Part shown: positions 5,212 to 46,381 of the stretch, piece by piece | How the letters are laid out: the number at the start of each line of letters is the position of its first letter | Position numbering within the stretch: position 1 is the stretch's first letter | Virus record (IMG/VR): IMGVR_UViG_3300028833_000080 | Strand: one strand, 5' to 3' | DNA: 64,000 bases | From: an uncultured virus (IMG/VR IMGVR_UViG_3300028833_000080) | Lineage: Duplodnaviria; Heunggongvirae; Uroviricota; Caudoviricetes | Program-made: the position numbers and the translations under genes | Notes under the pieces: model-generated | What the model saw: the letters and a program-made list of their open reading frames with translations, nothing else | Told to the model about the DNA's origin: nothing | Databases searched by the model: none

Positions 5212-5751
5212 ATAAATAAAAAACGCCTTTCGGGGCGTTTTTTCTAGCCTAATTAAATAACATCTGTTATTGAGCGGCGTGTCACCGATGGTGATTCGCC
5301 GTATCTACCCCAAAGATCTTCTATATGGGTTTTTTCGCTGAATGTTTGAATTATATGCAATTTTTCCGTGGATCCTGAAATTAAGCGGGTCCCGCGGTGT
5401 ATTCATACTTGACTTTTTTAAAAATTTATGTTATAATATAAAAAAACGACTTTTTTAAGTCCGCTCCTAAATTTTAAACGATTTGTCCCTCTCATGAAGT
5501 TCTTACCATTTAATTAAAAATCACTTTACTACAGCTCAATACAGTTTAACAAGAGAAGATGAAAATCGATGGTTGAGGCCCTCAAAAATATCCACTTGCT
5601 TTTTATTAAAAATTATGTTATAATTATAATGGGGGAATATATATATTTTTAAAACCGCTTGACAAAAATAAAAATTTATGATATAATATATATAATAAGA
5701 GAATAAAAAAATGTGCAAAGCACATTTTTTCAGAAAGAAGGTATAAAATAT

Positions 5752-6105
5752 ATGAATAAAGAAATGAATGAAGATATTTTTAGGCGGATGCTTGATGCGG
5801 GAAGAACCCCAGAAGAAATCTATGAGATTGCTAAGAAAAAGGCAGCAGAAATGAAAAAGGAACAAGAGGAAGCTAAAAAGCTGGCAGCAGAACAAAAGAA
5901 GAAAGAAAAGGCGGTTGCCGGTGCTAGAGCCAAGGTTGTTGAAGCTATGAAAGAATATTCTACATTGCTATATGGAGTTGAGCCTGATATCAAGCTTATG
6001 GACGCTTTTAATGCAGATTTAAAGCTAATTGAACAGAATGCTAAGGGCAGTTCAAGCAAAGAGTATGATATTTTTAATGAACTAATGAATTTGATCTGGA
6101 ACTAA
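5752..6105 (+). CDS. Hypothetical coiled-coil protein
   Basis: K/E/A-rich ORF downstream of a TTGACA promoter. Confidence 0.6.
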   Translation: MNKEMNEDIFRRMLDAGRTPEEIYEIAKKKAAEMKKEQEEAKKLAAEQKKKEKAVAGARAKVVEAMKEYSTLLYGVEPDIKLMDAFNADLKLIEQNAKGSSSKEYDIFNELMNLIWN

Positions 6106-7470: not shown

Positions 7471-7650
7471 TTAACCCTCCCTCACAAGCTCATCAAAAGC
7501 CGCTAAAAAGGCGGGAGTTGCTTCATAAACCCAACATTTATATTGTTTCTTTTTAGGATTTTCTGTTTCCAATAGAGGAACAAATCCTTTTAATTCAAGT
7601 AAATTCTTTAACTTAAAAGAATATACTATTTTTATATCTGCTTTTGACAT
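7471..7650 (-). CDS. Small protein (59 aa), DUF5659-like
   Basis: MSKADIKIVYSFKLKNLLELKGFVPLLETENPKKKQYKCWVYEATPAFLAAFDELVREG; RBS GAGG; not in the ORF track. Confidence 0.6.
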   Translation of the reverse strand: MSKADIKIVYSFKLKNLLELKGFVPLLETENPKKKQYKCWVYEATPAFLAAFDELVREG

Positions 7651-7660
7651 AGTAAAACCT

Positions 7661-7813
7661 CTATTCCTCTGTATTTTCTACAGTTTGACATCCATCAATA
7701 TAATATTTAATAGCTTTTCTTACCACCCAAGATATATTTCTATCTTCTTCTGCGGCCTTCTTATCTAAAAATTCCTTATCTTCGTCTGGAATTCTTACCG
7801 TAATCTGTGCCAT
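7661..7813 (-). CDS. Ribbon-helix-helix (CopG/Arc-like) DNA-binding protein (50 aa)
   Basis: MAQITVRIPDEDKEFLDKKAAEEDRNISWVVRKAIKYYI fits the RHH pattern; RBS GAAAGGAG; not in the ORF track. Confidence 0.8.
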   Translation of the reverse strand: MAQITVRIPDEDKEFLDKKAAEEDRNISWVVRKAIKYYIDGCQTVENTEE

Positions 7814-18493: not shown

Positions 18494-18559
18494 TTTTCTA
18501 TTGACATTTTTAAAATTTTATGATATAATATTTATATAATAAAGAAAGAGGTATGTATT

Positions 18560-18736
18560 ATGTCTAAGGGGAATCCGCAGAAAAAAGAAGTTTTTCAAGA
18601 CAACTTTATTAAACATTGGTGTTGTTCTGCTGATAATCACCCAGAAGGCTGGGCTTGGTGGAAAAGAAAAGCTAGAAAAGATTTTCGTAGATTAGATAAA
18701 AAACATATAAAGTCTGAGTTAGATAATCTTACTTGA
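18560..18736 (+). CDS. Small basic Trp-rich protein (58 aa), paralog of 1340-1516
   Basis: MSKGNPQKKEVFQDNFIKHWCCSADNHPEGWAWWKRKARKDFRRLDKKHIKSELDNLT. Confidence 0.75.
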   Translation: MSKGNPQKKEVFQDNFIKHWCCSADNHPEGWAWWKRKARKDFRRLDKKHIKSELDNLT

Positions 18737-18863
18737 CATTTTTAAAAAATTTTGTTATAATATATATATAAGATGAAAGCAATAAAAAAACAAAAATAAA
18801 ACAGAGTAGATAAGCAATGATTGTTGAGCCTATTGAAACTACTCGGCTTAGAGTAATCTTATT

Positions 18864-18937
18864 GGAGGCTTAGCTCAGTTGGTGGTAGCGAGTGACTGTT
18901 AATCACTAGGTCCGGGGTTCAAGTCCCTGAGCCTCCG
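18864..18937 (+). tRNA. tRNA-Asn(GTT)
   Basis: GGAGGCT/AGCCTCC, AGTGA-CTGTTAA-TCACT, GTTCAAGTC. Confidence 0.92.
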
Positions 18938-18940
18938 TTG

Positions 18941-19181
18941 GCAAGTATAAAGCCAAAGCGCTTTCTAAAAGTGGAGTCTAAAGCGTAATAAAGTCTTTAC
19001 ATAAAGATATAGACATACCATAACTTTGAGGATAAAGTAGAAATCCTTGGCGTATGAGATTGTGGAACATTGCTACTCCTCACATGGCTGCCAAAAAGCT
19101 TAAAGATGTCGTAGAAATGGACGGAGATTACTCGCACACACGGGAGAACTTCGAGAAACAAAAGTAGGAAGTGTAGTTTGC
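18941..19181 (+). ncRNA. Candidate structured ncRNA (~240 nt)
   Basis: CGCTTTCTA(18959)/TAGGAAGTG(19165) closing stem, several internal hairpins, no ORF. Confidence 0.45.
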
Positions 19182-19221
19182 AAACGAGCGGGTTTGGTTG
19201 GCATCCGCAATAAAGTCAACA

Positions 19222-19312
19222 GGCTAGTAAATAGTGAAGATAAAGGTTCAAGTCCTTTACTGTCCTTCTGGGGCGGTCTGTGTGATGGGATTCACACGTC
19301 ACTGAGCTAGGC
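19222..19312 (+). ncRNA. Circularly permuted tRNA-like (YrlA/Y-RNA-like) domain
   Basis: Order is stem AGTGA, 4-nt variable region, T-arm AAAGG-TTCAAGT-CCTTT, 7-bp acceptor stem closed by a loop, D-arm GTGT..GG..ACAC, then TCACT; outer CTAGT/GCTAG stem. Confidence 0.7.
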
Positions 19313-19439
19313 GGAAGCGCGGCTAACGTAAAGGGATACGCGTCCCAAGGCGGTCTAGTGAGGAGCTAGGTTGAGACTCCGCTGAAAACTCCTCTTAATT
19401 AAATAAAACCGCAAGATGTGTAATGCGGAATAAAAGAAA

Positions 19440-19800
19440 TTAAACATCCTCTATAAGTAGGGAAGCATGAAAAGCGACTTCGGCTATATAGAGTGAATCC
19501 TAAAGCCCATGATACTAATGGACTATGCGTGAATGTATTAGTTGTTTTATGGGGAGAGTGGTAGAAATCCACAAAGAGATAGTAGAGGTAATAAATAGAT
19601 GCATATGTTTATTATTAATCGCTTCTCGGATCAGAGGAAAGCTAGCAAACGTTCCACTCCCGCCGTAAAACAACTAATGCTAAAAAGTATCTGAAACGCT
19701 AGGTAATTAAAAATGCGCGGGCTGGGGTAGAAGAAATTTTCGTCCTGAAGAAAGTAACTACGCTCATAGAGGTCCCACCACCCGAAGCCTGTTAAAATCA
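19440..19800 (+). ncRNA. Large pseudoknotted ncRNA, tentatively ROOL-like
   Basis: 18-bp stem 19535-52/19663-80; long-range GATACT/AGTATC, CTATG/CATAG, GCGT/ACGC and GCGGGCT/AGCCTGT pairings; lies between tRNAs. Confidence 0.55.
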
Positions 19801-19854
19801 AAAGTCGGGGAACTCTAGGAATAATTTCCTACGGCGAGGGTTAAGCCTCGCGAT

Positions 19855-19926
19855 AGACCTTTAGTATAATTGGCAGTACCTCGGTCTCCAAAACCGATGG
19901 TCTAGGTTCAAATCCTAGAGGGTCTG
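19855..19926 (+). tRNA. tRNA-Trp(CCA)
   Basis: AGACCTT/AGGGTCT, TCGGT-CTCCAAA-ACCGA, GTTCAAATC. Confidence 0.92.
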
Positions 19927-19971
19927 TTTTATATTAAAAAGTTAAGATAGTATTTTATAAAAGGAGAAAAT

Positions 19972-20250
19972 ATGAAGAGGAAATATACAGTTAAAGCATG
20001 GGATGGCTTGATGGAATGGAATTCAGATTATTATGAATTTGAAGCAGAGAGCGATGAAGAAGCCATTAAAATTGCAGACGATTGGTTTAATACAGAATAT
20101 CTTCCAGATGTATTAAATGATCCTCAAAGTTATGATGACTATCCCAATGAAGAAGATTATGATTCTGAGGATGAATATGAGTATGCAGTAGCAGAAGCGC
20201 AGGACACATTACGTGAAGAACTTATGTGGGAATTTGTTGTTGAGAACTAA
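19972..20250 (+). CDS. Very acidic small protein
   Basis: D/E/Y-rich ORF with RBS AAGGAG. Confidence 0.65.
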   Translation: MKRKYTVKAWDGLMEWNSDYYEFEAESDEEAIKIADDWFNTEYLPDVLNDPQSYDDYPNEEDYDSEDEYEYAVAEAQDTLREELMWEFVVEN

Positions 20251-20451
20251 TTAAATTATCTTAACTTGACATTTTTAAAAATTTATGATATAATATATAT
20301 GTAAGATAAAAAAAGAACTGTTTCAATTTTCTTACTTTTCCTTTCTCATAAAAGGAAGTAATTTTTGACCAACAGAGTAGAGTGCAACTGTTTGAAGTCG
20401 TTAAAAGCAAACGAAACCTCTCCCACCCGCGAGGTATAGCGGGCATATTTA

Positions 20452-20524
20452 CGCTTAGTCGTCTAGAGGCCCAGGACACTAGCTTCTCAGGCTAGTAACA
20501 TCAGTTCGAATCTGGTCTAAGTGA
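20452..20524 (+). tRNA. tRNA-Glu(CTC)
   Basis: CGCTTAG/CTAAGTG, CTAGC-TTCTCAG-GCTAG, GTTCGAATC. Confidence 0.85.
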
Positions 20525-20646
20525 TTTAATAAAGCGAATGGTAACACGTTTACGCTTTAGAGAAAATTGGATCTCGCTTGTTTTATTTACACAAGAGAAT
20601 GATAGGTACCATCTATCAAGCGCACGCATATTTGCTTTATTATTTT

Positions 20647-20719
20647 GGCTCGTTAGTCCAATGGCTAAGACGTGAGGTTTTCATCCTCAAGAAAGAGAGT
20701 TCAATTCTCCTACGAGTCA
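20647..20719 (+). tRNA. tRNA-Glu(TTC)
   Basis: GGCTCGT/ACGAGTC, TGAGG-TTTTCAT-CCTCA, GTTCAATTC. Confidence 0.85.
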
Positions 20720-20892
20720 TATTCCTAAGCTACATAGAGACGTCAAGGGTTAAGGTATGAAAAAACTTAATCCTAGTAGCGGGGCTGCGACCAGCTGGCA
20801 AAGAGGTATGCGTAGCGATAGACTACAAGAGACGCGCTGATTAAAGGTACCAAATACGTCTTTGATACGTAGTTCAGCATCTATCATATTAT

Positions 20893-20964
20893 CGCGGGGT
20901 AGAGGAGAGGCTCCTTGACGGGTTCATAACCCGTAGACCTGGGTTCGATTCCCAGCCACCGCAA
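20893..20964 (+). tRNA. tRNA-Met(CAT), initiator-like
   Basis: C1 mismatch; three G-C pairs in ACGGG-TTCATAA-CCCGT; GTTCGATTC. Confidence 0.85.
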
Positions 20965-20967
20965 TTA

Positions 20968-21080
20968 GTGATGCATACAGCAAACTCTATTTTCAAGAGG
21001 CATATAAATGGTATAATGCTTAATAAGGAAAAGGTTCTGGAGTCCCGCCAAAAATCCTATGAAGAGGCTCTTGCATCATG
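20968..21080 (+). ncRNA. Hairpin RNA motif copy 1 upstream of the DUF2828 gene
   Basis: GTGATGCA-TACAGCAA ... TGCATCAT-G. Confidence 0.6.
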
Positions 21081-21088
21081 TTTTAAAA

Positions 21089-21160
21089 GTGACGTTTACT
21101 GCAATTTTTTTAATTAATAACTGATAACGGATTAGCGCATAATATTATTATAACGTCATG
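21089..21160 (+). ncRNA. Hairpin RNA motif copy 2 upstream of the DUF2828 gene
   Basis: GTGACGTT-TACTGCAA ... AACGTCAT-G; compensatory changes relative to copy 1. Confidence 0.6.
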
Positions 21161-21201
21161 TTGTTAATATCTCTATTTAAACAAAAGGAGAAAAGTTTTA
21201 T

Positions 21202-22686
21202 ATGAATAAATTTGTAGAAGCTGCAAAGAAAGAAGAAAATATTACATATACAGAAAATGGAGCACAGGCTCTTAAATCAACAAATAATGCTTGCTTAGAT
21301 TTTTTTAGTGTTATTGGAGCTCTTAGACAGACTGGAAAAAATAATACTATTGATGAAATAAGAGCAACAAGACTTTTTGCAGAAGCATATAAAGAAAATC
21401 CCCTTTTAGCTATTAAAAGTCTTTTTTATGGTAGAGATATTAGAGAAGGACTTGGAGAAAGAGAACTTGTTAGAATTCTGATGAGATATATTGCGAATTA
21501 TCACCCTGAAGCTCTTATTAATAATCTTGATTTAATTGGCGTTTATGGTCGATATGATGATTTATATGCTTTAATTGGAACTCCTCTTGAAGGAGAAATG
21601 TGGGCTGCGATGTCTCGTCAATTTGAAGAAGATAAAATCAACTTGGCGGAAGGACGTGTAATTTCCTTACTTGCTAAATGGATTAAAACTCCAGATGCTT
21701 CTTCAAAAAATACTCGTAAGCTTGGTATTCTTACTGCACATAAGTTAGGATATTCTGTTTATGATTTTAAGCGCACCCTCCGCGCAATGAGAAAACATAT
21801 TGATATTGTTGAAAGACATATGTCTGCTGGGGAATGGGATAAAATTTCTTATTCTTCAGTTCCTAGCAGAGCTATGATGATATATCGTAATGCTTTTAGA
21901 AAGCATGATGCCACAAGATATGATGAATTTATTCATCTTGCTCTTGAAGGAAAAGAAAAGATTAATAGTTCTACTCTTTATCCTTATGATATAGTTGAAA
22001 AATATTTATATGAACATGAAGCAAGCGATACACTAGAAGCTCAGTGGAGACAGTTACCTAACTACATTGATTCTAATGATAACATTCTTGTAATGGCAGA
22101 TGTTTCTGGGTCTATGTATGGACGTCCTATGGCATCATCTATTGGATTAGCTATGTATTTTGCGGAAAGAAATAAAGGCGATTTTCATAATTTATTTATG
22201 ACTTTTTCTGGAAATCCTGAATTTGTTTCTATTAAAGGTGAAACTTTAGCACAGAAAATTGACTTTATTCATAAGGCAGAATGGGGTATGGATACTAATC
22301 TTGAGGCTGCTGTTATGTCAGTACTTGATTTAGGTATTAAAAATCATATTCCTCAAAAAGAAATGCCCAAAGCTATTGTTGTAGTTACAGATATGGAAAT
22401 TAATGCTTGCACTATGAGATATAATTATTCATGGACATTCTATGATGAAATGAAAGCTCGTTTTGAAGATGCTGGATATGCAATTCCTAATATTGTATTT
22501 TGGAATGTAGAAAGTCGTAATGATGTTTTTCATTCTGATGCAAAAAGAAAAGGTGTACAACTTGTATCAGGTCATGCTACATCAACATTTAAAACTTTAC
22601 TTAAGTGTTTAGATAAGACTCCAGAAGAAATGATGCTTGAAGTACTTAATTCAAAAAGATATGAACCAATAATAATAGGAGAATAA
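21202..22686 (+). CDS. DUF2828-family helical-repeat + vWA protein (TROVE/Ro60-like architecture)
   Basis: TENGA..ST..CLDFF, RDIREGLGER, LLAKW, vWA MIDAS DVSGSM, T..TDME, VFWNV. Confidence 0.85.
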   Translation: MNKFVEAAKKEENITYTENGAQALKSTNNACLDFFSVIGALRQTGKNNTIDEIRATRLFAEAYKENPLLAIKSLFYGRDIREGLGERELVRILMRYIANYHPEALINNLDLIGVYGRYDDLYALIGTPLEGEMWAAMSRQFEEDKINLAEGRVISLLAKWIKTPDASSKNTRKLGILTAHKLGYSVYDFKRTLRAMRKHIDIVERHMSAGEWDKISYSSVPSRAMMIYRNAFRKHDATRYDEFIHLALEGKEKINSSTLYPYDIVEKYLYEHEASDTLEAQWRQLPNYIDSNDNILVMADVSGSMYGRPMASSIGLAMYFAERNKGDFHNLFMTFSGNPEFVSIKGETLAQKIDFIHKAEWGMDTNLEAAVMSVLDLGIKNHIPQKEMPKAIVVVTDMEINACTMRYNYSWTFYDEMKARFEDAGYAIPNIVFWNVESRNDVFHSDAKRKGVQLVSGHATSTFKTLLKCLDKTPEEMMLEVLNSKRYEPIIIGE

Positions 22687-39669: not shown

Positions 39670-40479
39670 ATGAAAAAAACATATGCCTGTGCTGATTTTC
39701 ATGGAAATTGGACATTGGCTGAAAAAGTATTAAATTTCATAGAACCAGATGATACTCTTTATTTTCTTGGTGATGCTATAGATAGAGGTCCAGATGGAAT
39801 TAAAATATTCCAGACTCTTATTAATGACCATAGAGTAAAATTCATTAAAGGTAATCATGAAGAAATGATGGCTGATGCTATTCCTTATGTAGCAAGAGAG
39901 ATTGAAGATATTAGCTATTATGGCGGAAATGGGTATAATTTATGGTACGGTAATGGTGGAGAGGTAACTGCAAAGACACTTCAGGATATGAATGTGCAAG
40001 ATATTTATGCCATTAGAGAAGCTATTCTTAAAATGCCTACTGAATTAATTTATGAATCTCCTCTAGGACATAAAGTAATTCTTGAGCATGCTGGATATAG
40101 CCCTTTTATCACTCCTCATAGACAACATAACCCAGTTTGGGATAGAGATCACTTCTATGATGATTGGAATGATGGGTATGAAAAAGAAGACTTTAATCCA
40201 GATAATACCTATCTTATTCATGGACATACTCCTGTTCAATATCTTAAGTATTTGTATGGATATAAAAATCAGCTCACCTTCACAGAAGAGGAAATTATAC
40301 AAAAAAGAAAATGGCTTACTGAAGCAAAAGAAGATAAAAAGCCAGAAATAATAAAATATTGTGATGGTCATAAATTTGACATAGACCTCTGCACTATTAT
40401 AAGTAATAGAATAGCACTTATTGATTTAGATACTTTTAAAATTATTTATTTTGATGAAGATAAAGGAGATAATAACTAA
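39670..40479 (+). CDS. Metallophosphoesterase (Ser/Thr protein phosphatase-like)
   Basis: DFHG, GDAIDRG, GNHE, HAG, HGHTP. Confidence 0.88.
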   Translation: MKKTYACADFHGNWTLAEKVLNFIEPDDTLYFLGDAIDRGPDGIKIFQTLINDHRVKFIKGNHEEMMADAIPYVAREIEDISYYGGNGYNLWYGNGGEVTAKTLQDMNVQDIYAIREAILKMPTELIYESPLGHKVILEHAGYSPFITPHRQHNPVWDRDHFYDDWNDGYEKEDFNPDNTYLIHGHTPVQYLKYLYGYKNQLTFTEEEIIQKRKWLTEAKEDKKPEIIKYCDGHKFDIDLCTIISNRIALIDLDTFKIIYFDEDKGDNN

Positions 40480-41210: not shown

Positions 41211-42482
41211 ATGCTCAACAAAGAAAATCAGAGAGAGCTCGCTTATGTAACTCGCATTGATGCTATTGAACCTATTGTTGGTTCTGATAATTGCGAAGCT
41301 GCAGTTGTAGGGGGATGGAAAATCATGGTTCGTAAAGGTACTTTCCAGCCTGGAAATCTTGCAATTTACTTTGAGATCGACTCTCATGTAGATATAAACA
41401 AGCCTGAGTTTGCATTTCTTATCAAAAAGCGCGGAAATGTGAAGACTCAGAAGTACACCTTCGGTGGAAAGAACCCAGGCTTTTATTCTCAGGGTCTGCT
41501 TATGAGTGCTGAGGACTTCGGTGGATTTGAGTATCAGGATGGAGATGGTCAGTTTTATCTTCATTTTGGAAAAGATTCTTTCTTTAAAGAGAATGTAGAT
41601 TATAAAAATGGCGATTTTCTTACTGAAAAACTTGGTGTAACTTATGCCGTAGCCGAAGATAACAAGAGAAAAGCTAAATCTAATCCCGATGCTAAAATTA
41701 ATGCGGTTTTAGCTAGACATCCTTATTTTGCTAAAAAATATGGTAGAGTTATAAAGAAAAATAAATTCCTTCGTCAGTTTTTTATCTTCCTTTGGGGTAA
41801 GAAAAAAGATTCTCGTAGCTGGATTGAAGGAGTTCCGAAGACAGATGAAGAGAGAATCGAGAATAGAACCTGGACACTTGAAGATGGCTCAAAAATCTGG
41901 ATAGCTACAGAAAAAATTGATGGAACTAGTACTACTTTCTATATGTCCAGATCTAGAGGGCTTAAAAAGGGAGAATATCTTGTATGTAGCAGAAATGTAA
42001 TTTTTGATACCCCTGCAAGAGCAGAAAGGAATTATTATTCTGATACAATTGGTTCAAATGTATATATTAAAATGAGCGAAAAGTATAATGTTAAAGAAGC
42101 TCTTCAGAAACTTCTTGAAAATAGACCTTCCGCTGAATGGGTCGCAGTTCAGGCAGAAACTTTTGGGCAAAACGTCCAAAAACGAGACTATGGAATGAAA
42201 GATCAGGAAATAAGGGCGTTTAATTTACTTTATTCCGATTGCGGTAGGGTTGGAACTCTTGAAATGAGAGATGCTCTTGAACCTTTAGGTATCCCTGTTG
42301 TACCTATTATATCAGAAGGTATGACACTTCCTTCTACTGTAGATGAACTTCGTGAGTTTGTTCATAGTGCGGGTTCTGCTATTGACGGCGAAATGAAAGA
42401 AGGTATTGTATTTAGAACTGTGGATGGTAAGGATAGCTTTAAATGCGTTGATCCTGCCTTCCTTGTAAAATATCATCAGTAA
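41211..42482 (+). CDS. RNA ligase, Rnl2/DRB0094 family
   Basis: N-terminal IEPI.GSD..E..V.GW...YFEIDS domain; motif I TEKIDGT; AET, EGIV, FKCV. Confidence 0.85.
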   Translation: MLNKENQRELAYVTRIDAIEPIVGSDNCEAAVVGGWKIMVRKGTFQPGNLAIYFEIDSHVDINKPEFAFLIKKRGNVKTQKYTFGGKNPGFYSQGLLMSAEDFGGFEYQDGDGQFYLHFGKDSFFKENVDYKNGDFLTEKLGVTYAVAEDNKRKAKSNPDAKINAVLARHPYFAKKYGRVIKKNKFLRQFFIFLWGKKKDSRSWIEGVPKTDEERIENRTWTLEDGSKIWIATEKIDGTSTTFYMSRSRGLKKGEYLVCSRNVIFDTPARAERNYYSDTIGSNVYIKMSEKYNVKEALQKLLENRPSAEWVAVQAETFGQNVQKRDYGMKDQEIRAFNLLYSDCGRVGTLEMRDALEPLGIPVVPIISEGMTLPSTVDELREFVHSAGSAIDGEMKEGIVFRTVDGKDSFKCVDPAFLVKYHQ

Positions 42483-43291: not shown

Positions 43292-43585
43292 ATGGGAAGT
43301 AAATTAATTGTAGATAATGAATTTTATTGTGTTAAGTGTAGCAGGAGGGGCATTCCTATAGCTAGGAAAAAAGGTGCAGAACGAGAAGCAGGACATTTAA
43401 AAAAATTATATTGTTTAAATTGTAAAATGGAGACAAATCATGCTGAATGCCGCCCATGGTCTGGATATACTTATGAAGATTTTCTTTTAGAATTTAATAA
43501 TCATAATTTTGATGAAGATGGAAATAGGATTTTAACATTAAGTGAGTTTAGGAGTAAAATAAACAATGAAAGAAATAAAGCATAA
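43292..43585 (+). CDS. Zinc-ribbon protein, ribosomal bL33-like N-terminus
   Basis: FYCVKC...HLKKLYCLNCKMETNHAE. Confidence 0.5.
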   Translation: MGSKLIVDNEFYCVKCSRRGIPIARKKGAEREAGHLKKLYCLNCKMETNHAECRPWSGYTYEDFLLEFNNHNFDEDGNRILTLSEFRSKINNERNKA

Positions 43586-44126
43586 ATTAATTATTCTTTG
43601 TGGAATCCCGGCTTGTGGAAAGAGCACATGGGTAAAAACTCATAAAGATTCAATATCTAAAACTACAAAAGTTGTATCTAGAGATAAAATTCGTTTTTCT
43701 CTTTTGAAAGAAGGAGAGGGATACTTTTCTAAAGAAAAACAGGTGTTTAATATTTTTATTGAAGAAATTAAAAAAGGTTTGATTGAAAATGAAGTAACTA
43801 TTGCTGATGCTACTCATTTAAATGAAAATTCAAGAAGAAAACTTTTAAATGCACTTGGTACTTCATTAAAAGATATTGAAATAGATGCTTTATTTATAAA
43901 AGTAAATCTTGAAACCGCTCTTGAAAGAAATTCTCATAGAGCGGGAAGAGCATTAGTGCCTGAAGATTCTATTAAAAATATGTATCTTACTTTAACGCCT
44001 CCCACTTTAGAGGAAGGTTTTAATAAAGTTTATATTTATGAAAATGGAAAATATATAGTAAAAGAAAAAGGAAGTGATAATAATGAGAAGGATTTTTCTA
44101 ACCTCAGATCTCCATTTCGGGCATAA
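43566..44126 (+). CDS. P-loop polynucleotide kinase-like (AAA_33)
   Basis: GIPACGKST, SRDKIR, DATHL, ERNSHR. Confidence 0.85.
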   Translation: MKEIKHKLIILCGIPACGKSTWVKTHKDSISKTTKVVSRDKIRFSLLKEGEGYFSKEKQVFNIFIEEIKKGLIENEVTIADATHLNENSRRKLLNALGTSLKDIEIDALFIKVNLETALERNSHRAGRALVPEDSIKNMYLTLTPPTLEEGFNKVYIYENGKYIVKEKGSDNNEKDFSNLRSPFRA

Positions 44127-44643
44127 TAAAGAATTTCTCTGGGGTCCTCGTGGCTTTAATTCAATCGAAGAGCATGATAAAGCAATAATTGAAAATTGGA
44201 ATTCTGTTGTAAATTGGGATGATGAAGTTTGGCTTCTTGGTGATTTAATGCTTAATGATAATGTACATGGAATTCATTGTATGAATCAATTAGCTGGAAA
44301 AATAAATATTATACGTGGAAATCATGATACGGATAATCGAATCCAAGAATACGTTAATATTAGACCCAATATTCTTTTTTATGGATTAGCTCAAATTTTA
44401 AAATATGGAGGATATACATTTTATCTCTCACATTATCCAACTCTTTGCTCTAACTTCGATGACGATAAACCGCTCCGTAGAAAGGTGATTAATATCTGTG
44501 GTCATTGTCATACTCAAGACAGGTTTAAAGATATGGACAAAGGAGTTATTTATCACGTTGAACTAGATGCACATAATAATACTCCAATTCTTTTGGATGA
44601 TATTATTAAAGATATAGAAAAATATGAGGAGAAGAAAAAGTGA
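44083..44643 (+). CDS. Calcineurin-like phosphoesterase
   Basis: SDLHFGH, LGD, GNHD, SHYP, GHCH. Confidence 0.88.
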   Translation: MRRIFLTSDLHFGHNKEFLWGPRGFNSIEEHDKAIIENWNSVVNWDDEVWLLGDLMLNDNVHGIHCMNQLAGKINIIRGNHDTDNRIQEYVNIRPNILFYGLAQILKYGGYTFYLSHYPTLCSNFDDDKPLRRKVINICGHCHTQDRFKDMDKGVIYHVELDAHNNTPILLDDIIKDIEKYEEKKK

Positions 44644-45077: not shown

Positions 45078-45139
45078 TATTATCCTTTTTTCATATATAA
45101 ATAGAAACATATTCTAAGAAAGGTGGATTGATTATTCAC

Positions 45140-46381
45140 ATGAAGTTTTATGATACAAATAGTCTACTTATTCTTCAAAATGAAATTTTAAAAGAGCCCT
45201 TTATAATTTCAAGTATCTCATTAAATGAATTAGAATCAATAAAAACATCTAGAACAAAAGATGAAGAAACTAAGTGGGCAGCAAGACAAGTTTTAAATCT
45301 TCTTGCAGATAACGAAGATAAATATGAAATTGAAATATATAAAACATATTTAGATGATGAATTAAAAGTATTAAATCTTCCATTATCTGATGATAGCAAA
45401 ATTATTTTGTGCGCTAGAGAAGCTTTTATCAAAAGAAACTGTGAACATACAGGAATTTTCGTTACTGAAGATTTAGCTTGTAAAAAAATAGCTGAATGTG
45501 TTGGATTAAAAACTGAATATGTTAGACAAGAAAATGATAAATATACTGGTTATAAAACAATTTCTATGTCCGAGAGAGAATTGGCTAATTTTTACGAGCA
45601 TGTAATGCCTGAAAATGAAAATAAATATAATCTTTTAACAAATCAATATTTGTTAATTGAATTCAATAATGAAATTACTGACAAATATAAATGGGTAGAA
45701 GATCATTATCAAAAAGTAGGATATCATAATATAGAAAGTATGATGTTTGGTAAGTTAAAACCTTACAATAATGATATATATCAAACTATTGCTATTGATT
45801 CATTAGTTTCAAATCAAATAATTGTACTTCGGGGTCCAGCGGGAAGTGGAAAATCGTATCTAGCTATGAGCTATTTAATGAGTTTATTGGATAAAGGAAA
45901 AATTGATAGAATTGTCATTTTAGCAAATACAGTTGCAGTGCGCGGTGCTGCTAAATTAGGATATTATCCGGGCTCTAGATTAGAGAAACTTTTAGATAGT
46001 CAAATTGGTAATTTTTTAATTACAAAATTTGGTAGTATCACCGAAGTAGAAAAAATGACAGATGAAGGTACTTTAATGATTTTACCTTGTTCAGATATCC
46101 GAGGATTAGATTTAAACGGTATGAGAGCTGGAGTATACGTAACTGAAAGTCAAAATACCACTATTGATATGATGAAACTTATGCTTCAAAGAACTGGAGA
46201 AGATAGTGTTGTAATTCTTGATGGAGATACTGAAAGTCAAGTAGATATGTCAGAATATAATGGATCTAATAATGGCTTGCGTAGAGTATCTCAAGTATTT
46301 CGTGGTCAAGATTTTTATGGAGAAACAACCCTAGTTAATATATATAGAAGTCAAATTGCTAGAATAGCAGAGCAAATGTAG
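45140..46381 (+). CDS. phoH: PhoH-family ATPase with N-terminal PIN domain
   Basis: YDTN..ELE (PIN); GPAGSGKS, LGYYPG, IRG, ESQN, GD..QVD. Confidence 0.9.
   Translation: MKFYDTNSLLILQNEILKEPFIISSISLNELESIKTSRTKDEETKWAARQVLNLLADNEDKYEIEIYKTYLDDELKVLNLPLSDDSKIILCAREAFIKRNCEHTGIFVTEDLACKKIAECVGLKTEYVRQENDKYTGYKTISMSERELANFYEHVMPENENKYNLLTNQYLLIEFNNEITDKYKWVEDHYQKVGYHNIESMMFGKLKPYNNDIYQTIAIDSLVSNQIIVLRGPAGSGKSYLAMSYLMSLLDKGKIDRIVILANTVAVRGAAKLGYYPGSRLEKLLDSQIGNFLITKFGSITEVEKMTDEGTLMILPCSDIRGLDLNGMRAGVYVTESQNTTIDMMKLMLQRTGEDSVVILDGDTESQVDMSEYNGSNNGLRRVSQVFRGQDFYGETTLVNIYRSQIARIAEQM

Follow-up and report, generated by a model that had tools for sequence, protein, structure and literature searches.

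Locus and geometry of the element

The window, that is, the whole stretch of 64,000 nucleotides that was analysed, carries nine tRNAs according to ARAGORN, and a permuted tRNA-like element lies downstream of a tRNA-Asn within positions 19187-19383. Upstream of both, a putative sigma-70-type promoter was recognised by its match to the consensus at all 12 positions (12/12); the Bacteroidetes-type promoter box TAnnTTTG is not enriched, with 88 found and 98.6 expected. Downstream, a gene for a protein with a DUF2828 domain starts 1819 nt from the element on the same strand, and the interval is occupied by tRNA-Trp, two tRNA-Glu, tRNA-Met, one ORF and two further candidate RNA elements, E1 and E2. 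The features are as follows.

18733..18761, + strand: predicted sigma-70-type promoter, TTGACA-17-TATAAT plus TG, 5' of tRNA-Asn and of the element
18952..19535, no strand assigned: stretch of high depth in RNA contigs, the transcript context of the element
19174..19186, + strand: 5' block, UAGUUUGCAAACG, including the 10-nt palindrome GUUUGCAAAC at 19176-85
19187..19223, + strand: 5' strand of the enclosing stems in the MFE fold, with AGCGG, GGUUUGGUUGGC, UCCGC (19204-08) and the 15-nt bulge AAUAAAGUCAACAGG
19224..19241, + strand: continuing stem, closing stem and variable region, with CUAGU, the internal loop AAAU, AGUGA and AGAU
19242..19258, + strand: T arm of 5 bp, AAAGG / UUCAAGU / CCUUU, where the Rfam tRNA model aligns
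19259..19277, + strand: closed acceptor-like hairpin, ACUGUCC (19259-65) / GGGCGGU (19271-77), loop UUCUG
19278..19298, + strand: linker CU (19278-79), D arm GUGU-GAUGGGAUUC-ACAC (19280-97) and G 19298
19299..19383, + strand: 3' strand in the MFE fold, with UCACU, GA, GCUAG, GCGGA, hairpins at 19333-46 and 19354-70 and the outer CCGCU
20968..21080, + strand: E1, GUGAUGCA-U-ACAGCAA ... UGCAUCAU-G, an open-type DUF2828-linked element directly 3' of tRNA-Met
21089..21160, + strand: E2, GUGACGUU-U-ACUGCAA ... AACGUCAU-G, open-type, with its end 41 nt upstream of the start codon of the DUF2828 gene
21202..22686, + strand: protein of 494 aa with DUF2828 and DUF7788/vWA (Pfam; phrog_850 'RNA-binding protein'), Ro60-like by predicted fold

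Checking of the sequence and the list of pairs showed that all coordinates and pairings of the original prediction are correct, and the parts of a tRNA follow one another there in permuted order. The outermost stem is formed by AGCGG (19187-91) and CCGCU (19379-83). Within it, UCCGC (19204-08) is paired with GCGGA (19311-15); this helix is nested, and the pseudoknot that had been assigned to the RNA is unnecessary. CUAGU (19224-28) pairs with GCUAG (19306-10) and continues the stem at the place where a tRNA has its anticodon loop, while AGUGA (19233-37), the counterpart of the 3' half of the anticodon stem, is paired over its full length (5/5) with UCACU (19299-303) in the closing stem. After a variable region of 4 nt (AGAU, 19238-41) and the T arm comes the acceptor-like hairpin, in which 7/7 positions are paired, including two G.U pairs, one of which (G19273 x U19263) is a wobble of the G3:U70 type. 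The D stem has 4 bp, can extend to 6 and carries a loop with GGG, and the G directly after the D arm (19298) is the equivalent of position 26.

The nucleotides of tRNA tertiary structure are also present, namely, G53-C61, U54, U55, C56, A58 and the GG of the D loop; the partners of the Levitt-type A15/U48 pair and of G26/A44 fit, position 14 is G, and the linker from the acceptor to the D arm is CU. The element would be expected to adopt an L shape. It has neither an anticodon loop nor a free CCA end, and decoding is therefore impossible. Inspection of the surrounding sequence showed that an upstream TCACT, a downstream T arm and a matching acceptor strand are absent.

As had been anticipated, tRNA finders pass over such an arrangement: ARAGORN reported no tRNA at the element, with or without introns, and the Rfam tRNA model (RF00005) aligned to the T arm and 3' strand at only 18.8 bits, where the gathering score is 29. 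For 18952-19535, a group I intron or a ribozyme found no support in Rfam.

Folding, rarity and relatives

The MFE fold of 19187-19383 recovers every listed helix (z -2.02, with 7 of 200 shuffles equal or better). In the 87-nt core (19224-19310), the permuted cloverleaf is both the MFE and the centroid structure at -29.5 kcal/mol, with a z of -2.96 and 2 of 200 shuffles as good, whereas the global MFE of 18945-19540 lacks the complete cloverleaf. A strict geometric descriptor, which demands a T stem paired 5/5 with UUYRA in its loop, acceptor closure at 7/7 positions, a linker of 2 nt, a D stem paired 4/4 with GG in its loop, and outer closure at 5/5 positions, gave a single match, the element itself, in 803,310 bases scanned on both strands (the window and 99 loci, this 803 kb being related tRNA-array DNA). 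Similarly, among 137 distinct candidates for a junction from a T arm to a D arm, the element alone pairs 7+5, the runners-up being six candidates at 5+5. Therefore, the single match and the sole 7+5 junction indicate that the element is more than a product of chance.

Searches for relatives returned little. A model of the element (R1) was run on 19 viral loci, where the best matches other than the element itself were junctions of adjacent tRNA-like units of ~120 nt (E 0.023 to 8), and on 80 metagenome loci, where nothing was convincing (best E 0.23, then 1.5). A pattern scan of viral contigs from T loop to D loop found the phage's own contig only, blastn against GenBank phages gave no match, and neither 18940-19190 nor 19187-19383 matched anything in the related loci by local blastn or nhmmer; in these searches, no homologue was found outside the phage lineage. 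The 18-mer of the D arm occurs 14 times in genome contigs, but these matches come from unrelated taxa and agree in the 18-mer only, and they were rejected. The 5' block (19174-19186) is a possible left edge of the element. A 30-nt block there is shared with the related locus L017 (1470-1499, 86.7% identity), and the 25-mer pattern of the block occurs in two viral contigs only, that of the phage itself and L017. The L017 region was rejected as a homologue, as it folds no better than shuffles (z 0.21).

The junctions of tandem units raise the question of whether the element is only a decaying junction, in which the 3' half of a tRNA or tRNA-like gene and the 5' half of its neighbour are transcribed along with the tRNA array and have no function of their own. 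Relatives do carry head-to-tail units of ~120 nt, whose junctions give weak matches to R1 and to the YrlA model, and the available text of Chen et al. (PMC4201824) warns that dimeric tRNAs mimic YrlA in searches. In addition, R2, a model of insert-bearing tRNA-like units defined in this analysis, aligns weakly to 19170-19267 as one tRNA-like unit whose D arm has decayed (19.4 bits, E 0.02), and GUGUAGU (19171-77) can pair with ACUGUCC at 6/7 positions. However, the outer halves of the two genes are absent, and both inter-unit helices are perfect, unlike those of the 136 other candidates. Among 246 distinct tRNAs, none emerged as a shared parent of both 33-nt halves (best local scores 12 and 18), RNA depth at the element is at least 10-fold above its flanks, and a 5-nt insertion in a natural variant (described below) builds a longer, GNRA-capped hairpin where the spacer between tRNAs would sit. 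A decaying junction is thus an improbable account of the element.

The transcript and its natural variant

The element is expressed, as the original prediction required: metatranscriptome contigs from two runs of one sample in one study match it exactly at depth 104-306. The exact RNA contigs cover 18952-19065 (depth 261), 19020-19264 (depth 306), 19036-19509 (depth 133, a single contig across the element) and 19235-19407 (depth 104), and the depth of flanking phage DNA is 3-5 at 18557-18866 and 4-21 at 19927-21300. Adapter letters adjoin 18952 and 19020. These contigs are without strand information, and the ends and the single-molecule continuity of the RNA are read from contigs only; depth gaps were not taken as absence. 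We infer both the strand of the element and the processing of its RNA. The runs bear the habitat label sheep gut; the stretch is also present in small proportion in runs X5-X8, which were left out of the habitat assignment. An RNA of ~200 nt had been expected; its helices within 19187-19383 were all found, but the transcript evidence spans about 18952-19535 and is longer.

A longer transcript suggests another explanation, namely, that the element is one domain of a large ornate phage RNA of the GOLLD/ROOL kind, about 0.45-0.6 kb in size, whose function is unrelated to a Ro60-like protein. GOLLD can carry tRNAs in a linker, and both GOLLD and ROOL occur in phage tRNA islands. The likeness lies in an abundant noncoding RNA, its position in a phage tRNA island and a habitat of the rumen type: depth is high from 18952 to about 19535, one contig runs through 19036-19509, the habitat label is sheep gut, and 19409-19535 is a structured module, while ROOL averages 581 nt and has been found in rumen data near tRNAs, according to the available part of PMC5737381. 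On the other hand, Rfam gave no match to ROOL, GOLLD or another large RNA, either at the gathering score in the window or at E <= 10 in 18940-19853, and no multistem ornate fold has been demonstrated. The stretch also appears modular. A variant in a DNA run links 19046 to 19174 and so lacks 19047-19173, and the 3' module (19409-19535) is conserved separately, standing alone in the related loci L011 and L012. The fold of the whole region 18945-19540 has a z of only -1.94, and nothing matches 18940-19190 elsewhere in the related loci. We therefore regard a large RNA of this kind as unlikely.

Another finding concerns a natural variant of the element, assembled as a contig of depth 62, in which the helices of the core are preserved. 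No substitution falls in the T arm or the D stem, and the closing stem of 5 bp and the lower 6 acceptor pairs are likewise unchanged. The acceptor loop is longer by 5 nt, with the result that the top pair and the loop are altered and the hairpin now has 6 bp, then a G.G mismatch and 3 further bp under a GAAA loop, with a local energy of -11.6 kcal/mol as against -9.2 kcal/mol. Among the substitutions, T19292C falls in the D-loop portion, C19346T retains a G.U pair and T19359C gives a better pair; C19366A disrupts one predicted pair outside the core. The structural conservation of the element rests on this one variant.

The variant bears on whether the hairpin is opened. In permuted two-piece tmRNA and in the permuted tRNA genes of Cyanidioschyzon merolae, the 3' half precedes the 5' half. 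The element shares this order and has a G3:U70-type pair as in tmRNA, and it might be the precursor of a two-piece, alanine-accepting tRNA-like RNA, cut by RNase P at its 7-bp acceptor, with its loop then trimmed back and CCA attached; G19273 x U19263 at 3:70 would permit charging. An acceptor of 7 bp is also found in the closed YrlA of M. smegmatis, which is cut by RNase P there and receives CCA, as stated in the available text of PMC4201824 (Chen et al.), where the seven pairs are linked to this cleavage. In contrast to that RNA, the variant of the element lengthens and caps the hairpin, and the G.G mismatch at 1:72 together with the stable GAAA-capped extension favours the closed form; the RNA contigs continue through the loop as well. 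No tmRNA was reported by ARAGORN or by Rfam (the window at the gathering score; 18940-19853 at E <= 10), and inspection of the element by eye revealed no plausible frame for a tag. Its D loop is not of the SmpB type, and its G.U at 3:70 is accompanied by a D stem of 4-6 bp, at variance with tmRNA. Unlike the permuted genes of C. merolae, the element has no anticodon loop that circularisation could rebuild. Such a two-piece RNA is highly improbable here.

YrlA, the DUF2828 protein and the proposed role

We find that the element is best read as an expressed, YrlA-type mimic of tRNA that forms part of a longer noncoding RNA. YrlA is bound by Ro60, and tRNA enzymes introduce pseudouridine and dihydrouridine into it. 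According to the available text of PMC4201824 and bioRxiv 10.1101/312249, YrlA RNAs mimic a permuted tRNA with a closed acceptor, and their genes lie near that of Ro60, in phages too. As in these RNAs, the order of parts in the element is 5' stem strand, variable region, T, closed acceptor, D and 3' stem strand. The anticodon loop and the free CCA are missing from both; the element has A15/U48 and the elbow nucleotides of the T and D loops, it carries an internal loop below its 5-bp 'anticodon' stem where YrlA has a kink, and it lies near a Ro60-like gene. The YrlA-like topology is hence upheld in the order of its parts. The Rfam models for YrlA and Y_RNA, which had been suggested as a check, gave no match at E <= 10 in a 914-nt search (18940-19853) or a 236-nt search (19165-19400), where the gathering score of YrlA (RF02553) is 69 bits; the model does work, reaching 26.4 bits at a tandem junction in the related locus L018. 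The motif GNCGAAN0-1G near the 5' end of YrlA is the presumed Ro60 contact in the available part of PMC4201824, and neither this motif nor even CGAA occurs in 18940-19540. Conserved features of YrlA named in the available part of bioRxiv 10.1101/312249 are the T and D loops, the pyrimidine that ends the variable loop and forms the Levitt pair, and UA between the acceptor and D stem-loops, whereas the linker of the element is CU. Further differences are its unusual D arm (GUGU/ACAC), its place in a longer abundant transcript, the four tRNA genes and the ORF that separate it from the protein gene, and the protein itself, a DUF2828-type relative of Ro60. The element is not a member of the Rfam YrlA family.

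The protein encoded at 21202-22686 is, by its predicted structure, Ro60-like. Its AF2 model has a pLDDT of 76.3 and a pTM of 0.73, and in a Foldseek search of the PDB, all 13 matches at E <= 0.001, as listed or counted, are Ro60/TROVE, the best being the phage phiLo Ro60 (E 5.5e-8). Against phage, bacterial, frog and human Ro60, the model aligns over about 526 columns with E values of 5.5e-8 to 8.8e-5 and TM scores of about 0.4-0.53. The protein follows the Ro60/TROVE plus vWA layout, in which a ring of helical repeats precedes a vWA domain with a MIDAS motif; Pfam recognises VWA_2/DUF7788, and D300, S302 and S304 are invariant among 18 relatives. At the level of sequence, there was no match in the PDB and no Pfam TROVE match.

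This makes the protein a plausible partner of the element, as had been proposed for the gene ~2 kb downstream; the Ro60-like fold agrees with the proposal, but the linked RNA signature lies in E1 and E2 and not in the element. The signature that tracks DUF2828 genes is GUGAC..ACAGCAA..GUCAUG. R3, the model of open-type DUF2828-linked elements defined in this analysis, calls for a 7-bp terminal helix starting with G.U and then an (A/G)CNGC(A/G)A box on the 5' strand. It matches E2 (21089-21160) at 37.0 bits (E 2.4e-7) and E1 at 24.8 bits (E 4.4e-4) with a closer closure at 21018 (20968-21018), and it has no match in 19187-19383 at E <= 10. Relatives show a layout like that of E2 before the DUF2828 gene. 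For the ACAGCAA box with a downstream partner, the count of 87 of 99 loci is an upper bound, because the naive test for such partners has a high background (132/288 versus 77/288 in the reversed control). Neither the insert-bearing tRNA-like units nor the GUGAC..ACAGCAA..GUCAUG family was found in Rfam or in the literature search. The element shares with these units the phage group, the tRNA-array setting and tRNA-derived bodies, and its positions 19204-19223 (UCCGCAAUAAAGUCAACAGG) weakly resemble the 3' half of the insert; UCCGCAA (19204-10) is weakly like the ACAGCAA box (the R2 alignment given above; nhmmer E 0.16). Unlike them, it has neither the G.U-ended GUGAC/GUCAUG helix nor an ACAGCAA box, and the members of that family are not permuted at the acceptor.

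A client other than Ro60 is also conceivable, in which case the element would be a sponge or decoy for a host factor that recognises the tRNA elbow or the acceptor-T minihelix, such as RNase P, a nuclease of a defence system, or an enzyme that modifies tRNA or adds CCA. The elbow nucleotides are intact, the RNA depth is high, and the tRNAs and RNA repair genes of the phage suit a conflict over tRNA; nevertheless, an anticodon loop and a free 3' end are both missing from the element. Among defence nucleases directed at tRNA, those best known cleave in the anticodon loop and therefore have no target here, so the decoy against host anticodon nucleases that was originally suggested is unlikely, and to a sponge of any of these kinds, we give a poor chance.

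We return to the tRNA mimic of the YrlA type, which, transcribed and presenting a tRNA-like surface, we hold to be somewhat short of an even chance. The transcript probably begins at the consensus promoter (18733-61) and would be released downstream of tRNA-Asn by tRNA processing. Like the effector domain of YrlA, the element would then likely offer a surface of tRNA shape to proteins that recognise tRNA. The phage neighbourhood contains genes for an RNA ligase, an AAA_33 kinase and a phosphoesterase, and the most plausible clients would belong to the phage's own set for quality control and repair of RNA, namely, the Ro60-like DUF2828 protein 1.8 kb downstream and the products of the RNA ligase and kinase/phosphatase genes. 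The element may descend from two tRNA-like genes in tandem, with the 3' half taken from the first and the 5' half from the second; we infer both this origin and the protein partner. A bolder proposal, which we consider doubtful as a whole, is that a permuted mimic is emerging from tandem tRNA-like genes beside a divergent branch of Ro60 (DUF2828) with an RNA module of its own. The module would be the G.U-ended GUGAC/GUCAUG helix with the ACAGCAA box, standing alone before the gene and also inserted into anticodon loops of tRNA bodies. The mimic would be the YrlA-like partner in a single phage ribonucleoprotein and the module RNAs its YrlB-like partners, and this particle would act on damaged tRNA together with the phage RNA ligase and kinase.

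To our knowledge, closed-acceptor tRNA mimics have so far been known as the YrlA RNAs of canonical Ro60. Here, an expressed closed-acceptor element has the shape of YrlA but matches neither its covariance model nor its 5' motif nor its UA linker, which implies that the tRNA-shaped effector domain may be invented repeatedly or may diverge beyond the reach of covariance models, and phage tRNA islands may hide further mimics of this sort. This phage, from a rumen-type habitat, would be an example of how viruses reuse the shape of tRNA for tasks other than decoding. DUF2828, a domain of unknown function, appears by predicted fold to be a relative of Ro60 and is accompanied, across about 100 loci, by a conserved RNA signature that had not been filed before. 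As a single phage combines the protein with three candidate RNAs, the locus would provide a testable system for the role of Ro60-type rings in infection.

Fold, rarity and relatives of the permuted tRNA-like element

All helices of the original prediction were recovered from the sequence and the pair list at their coordinates, and the predicted fold of the 197-nt stretch 19187-19383 (+ strand) is exactly the arrangement described then, with a z score of -2.02. In the 87-nt core, 19224-19310, the permuted cloverleaf is both the MFE and the centroid structure (z -2.96; 2 of 200 shuffles were as good), and the positions of the tRNA L-shape are mostly kept (G53-C61; U54, U55, C56 and A58; the D-loop GG; A15/U48; G26/A44), with C8 and G14 off. 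The UCCGC/GCGGA helix is nested, and therefore the proposed pseudoknot is not called for.

The fair null for this geometry is the junction of two neighbouring tRNA genes, abundant in these phages, and not random sequence. A decaying junction of two tRNA genes is one of the rival readings. When the permuted geometry was searched for with a strict descriptor, 803,310 bases (both strands; the window and 99 related loci) gave the element and nothing else; a relaxed descriptor gave six further matches, all imperfect. The element is the only one of 137 distinct T-arm-to-D-arm junction candidates to combine 7/7 acceptor closure with a 5/5 closing stem, the next best being six at 5+5. No parent tRNA was found; descent from a tandem tRNA-like pair is suggested by the tandem units of relatives and a weak unit-like alignment of 19170-19267.

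The proposed search with YrlA and Y RNA models gave no Rfam match at E <= 10 in either the 914-nt or the 236-nt search, with the YrlA model in the library. Judged by the defining features given in PMC4201824 and bioRxiv 10.1101/312249, the element has its arms in the same order as YrlA and shares its closed acceptor and a Levitt-type pair, but its acceptor-to-D linker is CU rather than UA and the GNCGAAN0-1G box is absent; CGAA has zero occurrences in 18940-19540. No homolog was found outside the phage lineage among GenBank phages, viral and metagenome loci, and viral and genome contigs. As families, tmRNA, tRNA, ROOL and GOLLD were excluded by ARAGORN and Rfam.

Genomic setting, expression and a natural variant

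The window comes from a large phage genome, and the same DNA is present as one IMG/VR contig (L001/G001); the sequencing runs containing this DNA are labelled sheep gut metagenome. ARAGORN and Rfam identify the same nine tRNA genes in the window, and the genes near the element are all on the + strand.

Features of the window
18501-18529; 18733-18761; about 20262-20314: repeated sigma-70 consensus promoters, extended -10, 12/12 match
18863-18938: tRNA-Asn
19187-19383, +: the element
19854-19927: tRNA-Trp
20968-21080 (E1) and 21089-21160 (E2): open-type RNA elements
21202-22686: ORF, Pfam DUF2828, DUF7788 and weakly VWA_2; phrog_850 'RNA-binding protein'
39670-40479, 41211-42482 (RNA ligase), 43566-44126 (AAA_33 kinase), 44074-44643, 45128-46381: RNA repair-type gene set

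A Gram-positive host is suggested by the perfect sigma-70 promoters and by an endolysin with glucosaminidase, amidase_2 and SH3 domains. The stretches ~18733-18780 and 20262-20314 recur at high depth in contigs from many other organisms, as a widespread promoter or repeat would. The initiator-like tRNA-Met 20894-20963 (CGCGGGG...CCACCGCA) has an acceptor-stem mismatch, and E1 begins 4 nt after it. In related loci, ARAGORN reports tRNAs with four-base (gaaa) and two-base (ag) anticodons, possibly odd-loop tRNAs (L017:1622-1695; L004:3095-3170).

The RNA evidence consists only of contigs, from two metatranscriptome runs (X3, X4) of one sample in one study.

Exact RNA contigs
18952-19065: depth 261
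19020-19264: depth 306
19036-19509: depth 133
19235-19407: depth 104

Flanking phage DNA has depths of 3-5 (18557-18866) and 4-21 (19927-21300) in the RNA runs, which controls internally for carried-over DNA. Adapter letters adjoin 18952 and 19020, a hint that fragments often end at these points. A second RNA contig over 19235-19407, at depth 62, is a variant with 8 letter differences and 4 indel sites (7 gap letters), whose changes inside the 71-nt tRNA-like core affect only the acceptor top pair and loop, and the D loop. When these differences were applied to the window sequence by script and refolded, the core fold was kept, structure conservation being judged from this single variant. The acceptor hairpin now has 6 bp followed by a G.G mismatch and 3 further bp under a GAAA loop (-9.2 to -11.6 kcal/mol); such a longer capped hairpin is not the expected evolution of a spacer between two separate tRNAs. 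Outside the core, C19346T keeps a pair, T19359C improves one and C19366A breaks one.

The best explanation of the element is a genuine tRNA mimic that is expressed, has a closed acceptor, cannot decode and lies within a longer noncoding transcript. Besides the decaying junction, the rival readings see in it one domain of a large RNA like GOLLD or ROOL, a sponge that takes up a host factor binding tRNA, or a two-piece RNA that accepts alanine.

Several neighbouring blocks were also observed. A 30-nt block with the palindrome GUUUGCAAAC (window 19174-19202; L017:1470-1499) is common to intergenic regions of two phages that are not alike in other respects, and the L017 sequence after it is neither tRNA-like nor significantly structured. 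A separate conserved RNA module, 19409-19535, shares 78% identity over 112 nt with L011/L012:7974-8084, has no Rfam match, and contains a CCGCA/UGCGG hairpin together with three pairs that change in a compensatory way (CUCUAUA/UAUAGAG versus CUGUGUG/CACACAG); its part 19499-19535 also occurs in further RNA contigs of very high abundance (summed depth 622-760). Indel polymorphism is seen in RNA contigs with 21 nt in place of 19537-19679, which overlaps the small ORF 19525-19668 and is 73% identical to L018:5063-5190, and in a DNA-run contig that skips 19047-19173, the small ORF 19054-19167.

RNAs accompanying the Ro60-like gene

The DUF2828 protein has no sequence match in the PDB. An AF2 model built with 18 relatives as input (pLDDT 76.3, pTM 0.73) matches Ro60 structures over the full length, best Thermus phage phiLo Ro60 (E 5.5e-8), followed by Deinococcus Rsr, Xenopus Ro60 and human Ro60. 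A DxSxS-type motif (D300, S302, S304), the kind named MIDAS, is invariant in the 18 relatives. The original premise of a Y-RNA partner is reasonable, since the predicted fold matches Ro60; pairing with the element itself is plausible and unproven. Phage Ro60 with Y-like RNAs is described in PMC12135203 and PMC7824862.

In 20 viral and 80 metagenome DUF2828 loci, the gene lies within tRNA arrays in 19 of the 20 viral ones, and in most loci it adjoins one to three tRNA-like units of ~120 nt with a ~45-nt anticodon-loop insert, which Rfam calls tRNA (39-52 bits). In 28 aligned units (alignment A3), a covarying insert hairpin and an invariant U.G closing pair precede ACAGCAA. R2, the model of these units, gave 143 matches of at least 73 bits in 99 loci; a unit lies within 700 nt of the gene in 65 of the 75 loci having at least 700 nt on both flanks, many near-identical and not de-duplicated. 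The units may not decode, because many anticodon loops, read by eye, are non-canonical.

The box is found in an open form as well, G(U/G)GAY..-ACAGCAA-...-..RUC(A/C)UG, whose 3' end usually lies just before the ribosome-binding site of the DUF2828 gene. This signature occurs at 161 distinct sites along the gene strand and at 8 along the opposite strand; for 56 of the 161 an 8/8 partner lies downstream with a G after it (wrong-side control, 7). In rows preselected for pairing, a 7-bp helix is paired in 25/25 aligned examples, four pairs covary, and 41 double-change cells compare with 14.3 in shuffles (0/500). The signature was found neither in the literature searched nor in Rfam, and these elements may form a Y-RNA-like or leader family. 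Inside many of them lies a hairpin resembling an anticodon arm, whose loop reads CU-NNN-AA and often CUUUUAA, as in tRNA-Lys UUU; some also enclose a T arm. They resemble pared-down tRNAs without a D arm.

DUF2828-linked RNAs
Insert-bearing units: L009:7471-7592, 7595-7724; L018:5595-5712, 5715-5834; L020:871-993, 997-1122
Open-type elements directly upstream of DUF2828 genes, with G.U-ended GUGAC/GUCAUG helix and ACAGCAA box: 20968-21080, 21089-21160; L002:4465-4517; L009:5901-5977; L013:5896-5976
Hairpin-enclosing open-type elements: L009:5758-5820; L011:5807-5869; L013:9052-9118; L006:5883-5964; L038:560-643, 958-1041

Besides the AAA_33 kinase and the RNA ligase, which carries a PHA02142 OB fold, the repair-type set includes two metallophosphoesterases and a PIN-PhoH protein; precedent makes a link of the element to these and the Ro60-like gene plausible, though it is unproven. 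R2 scores the element at 19.4 bits (E 0.02), the T arm contributing most. R3, the open-type model, matches E2 directly upstream of the DUF2828 gene (37.0 bits, E 2.4e-7) and E1 from 20968 (24.8 bits, E 4.4e-4), and does not match 19187-19383. Because the signature that tracks DUF2828 is in E1 and E2 and R3 leaves the element unmatched, these two RNAs are the best placed partners of the Ro60-like protein, and the element would be at most an additional, YrlA-like one.
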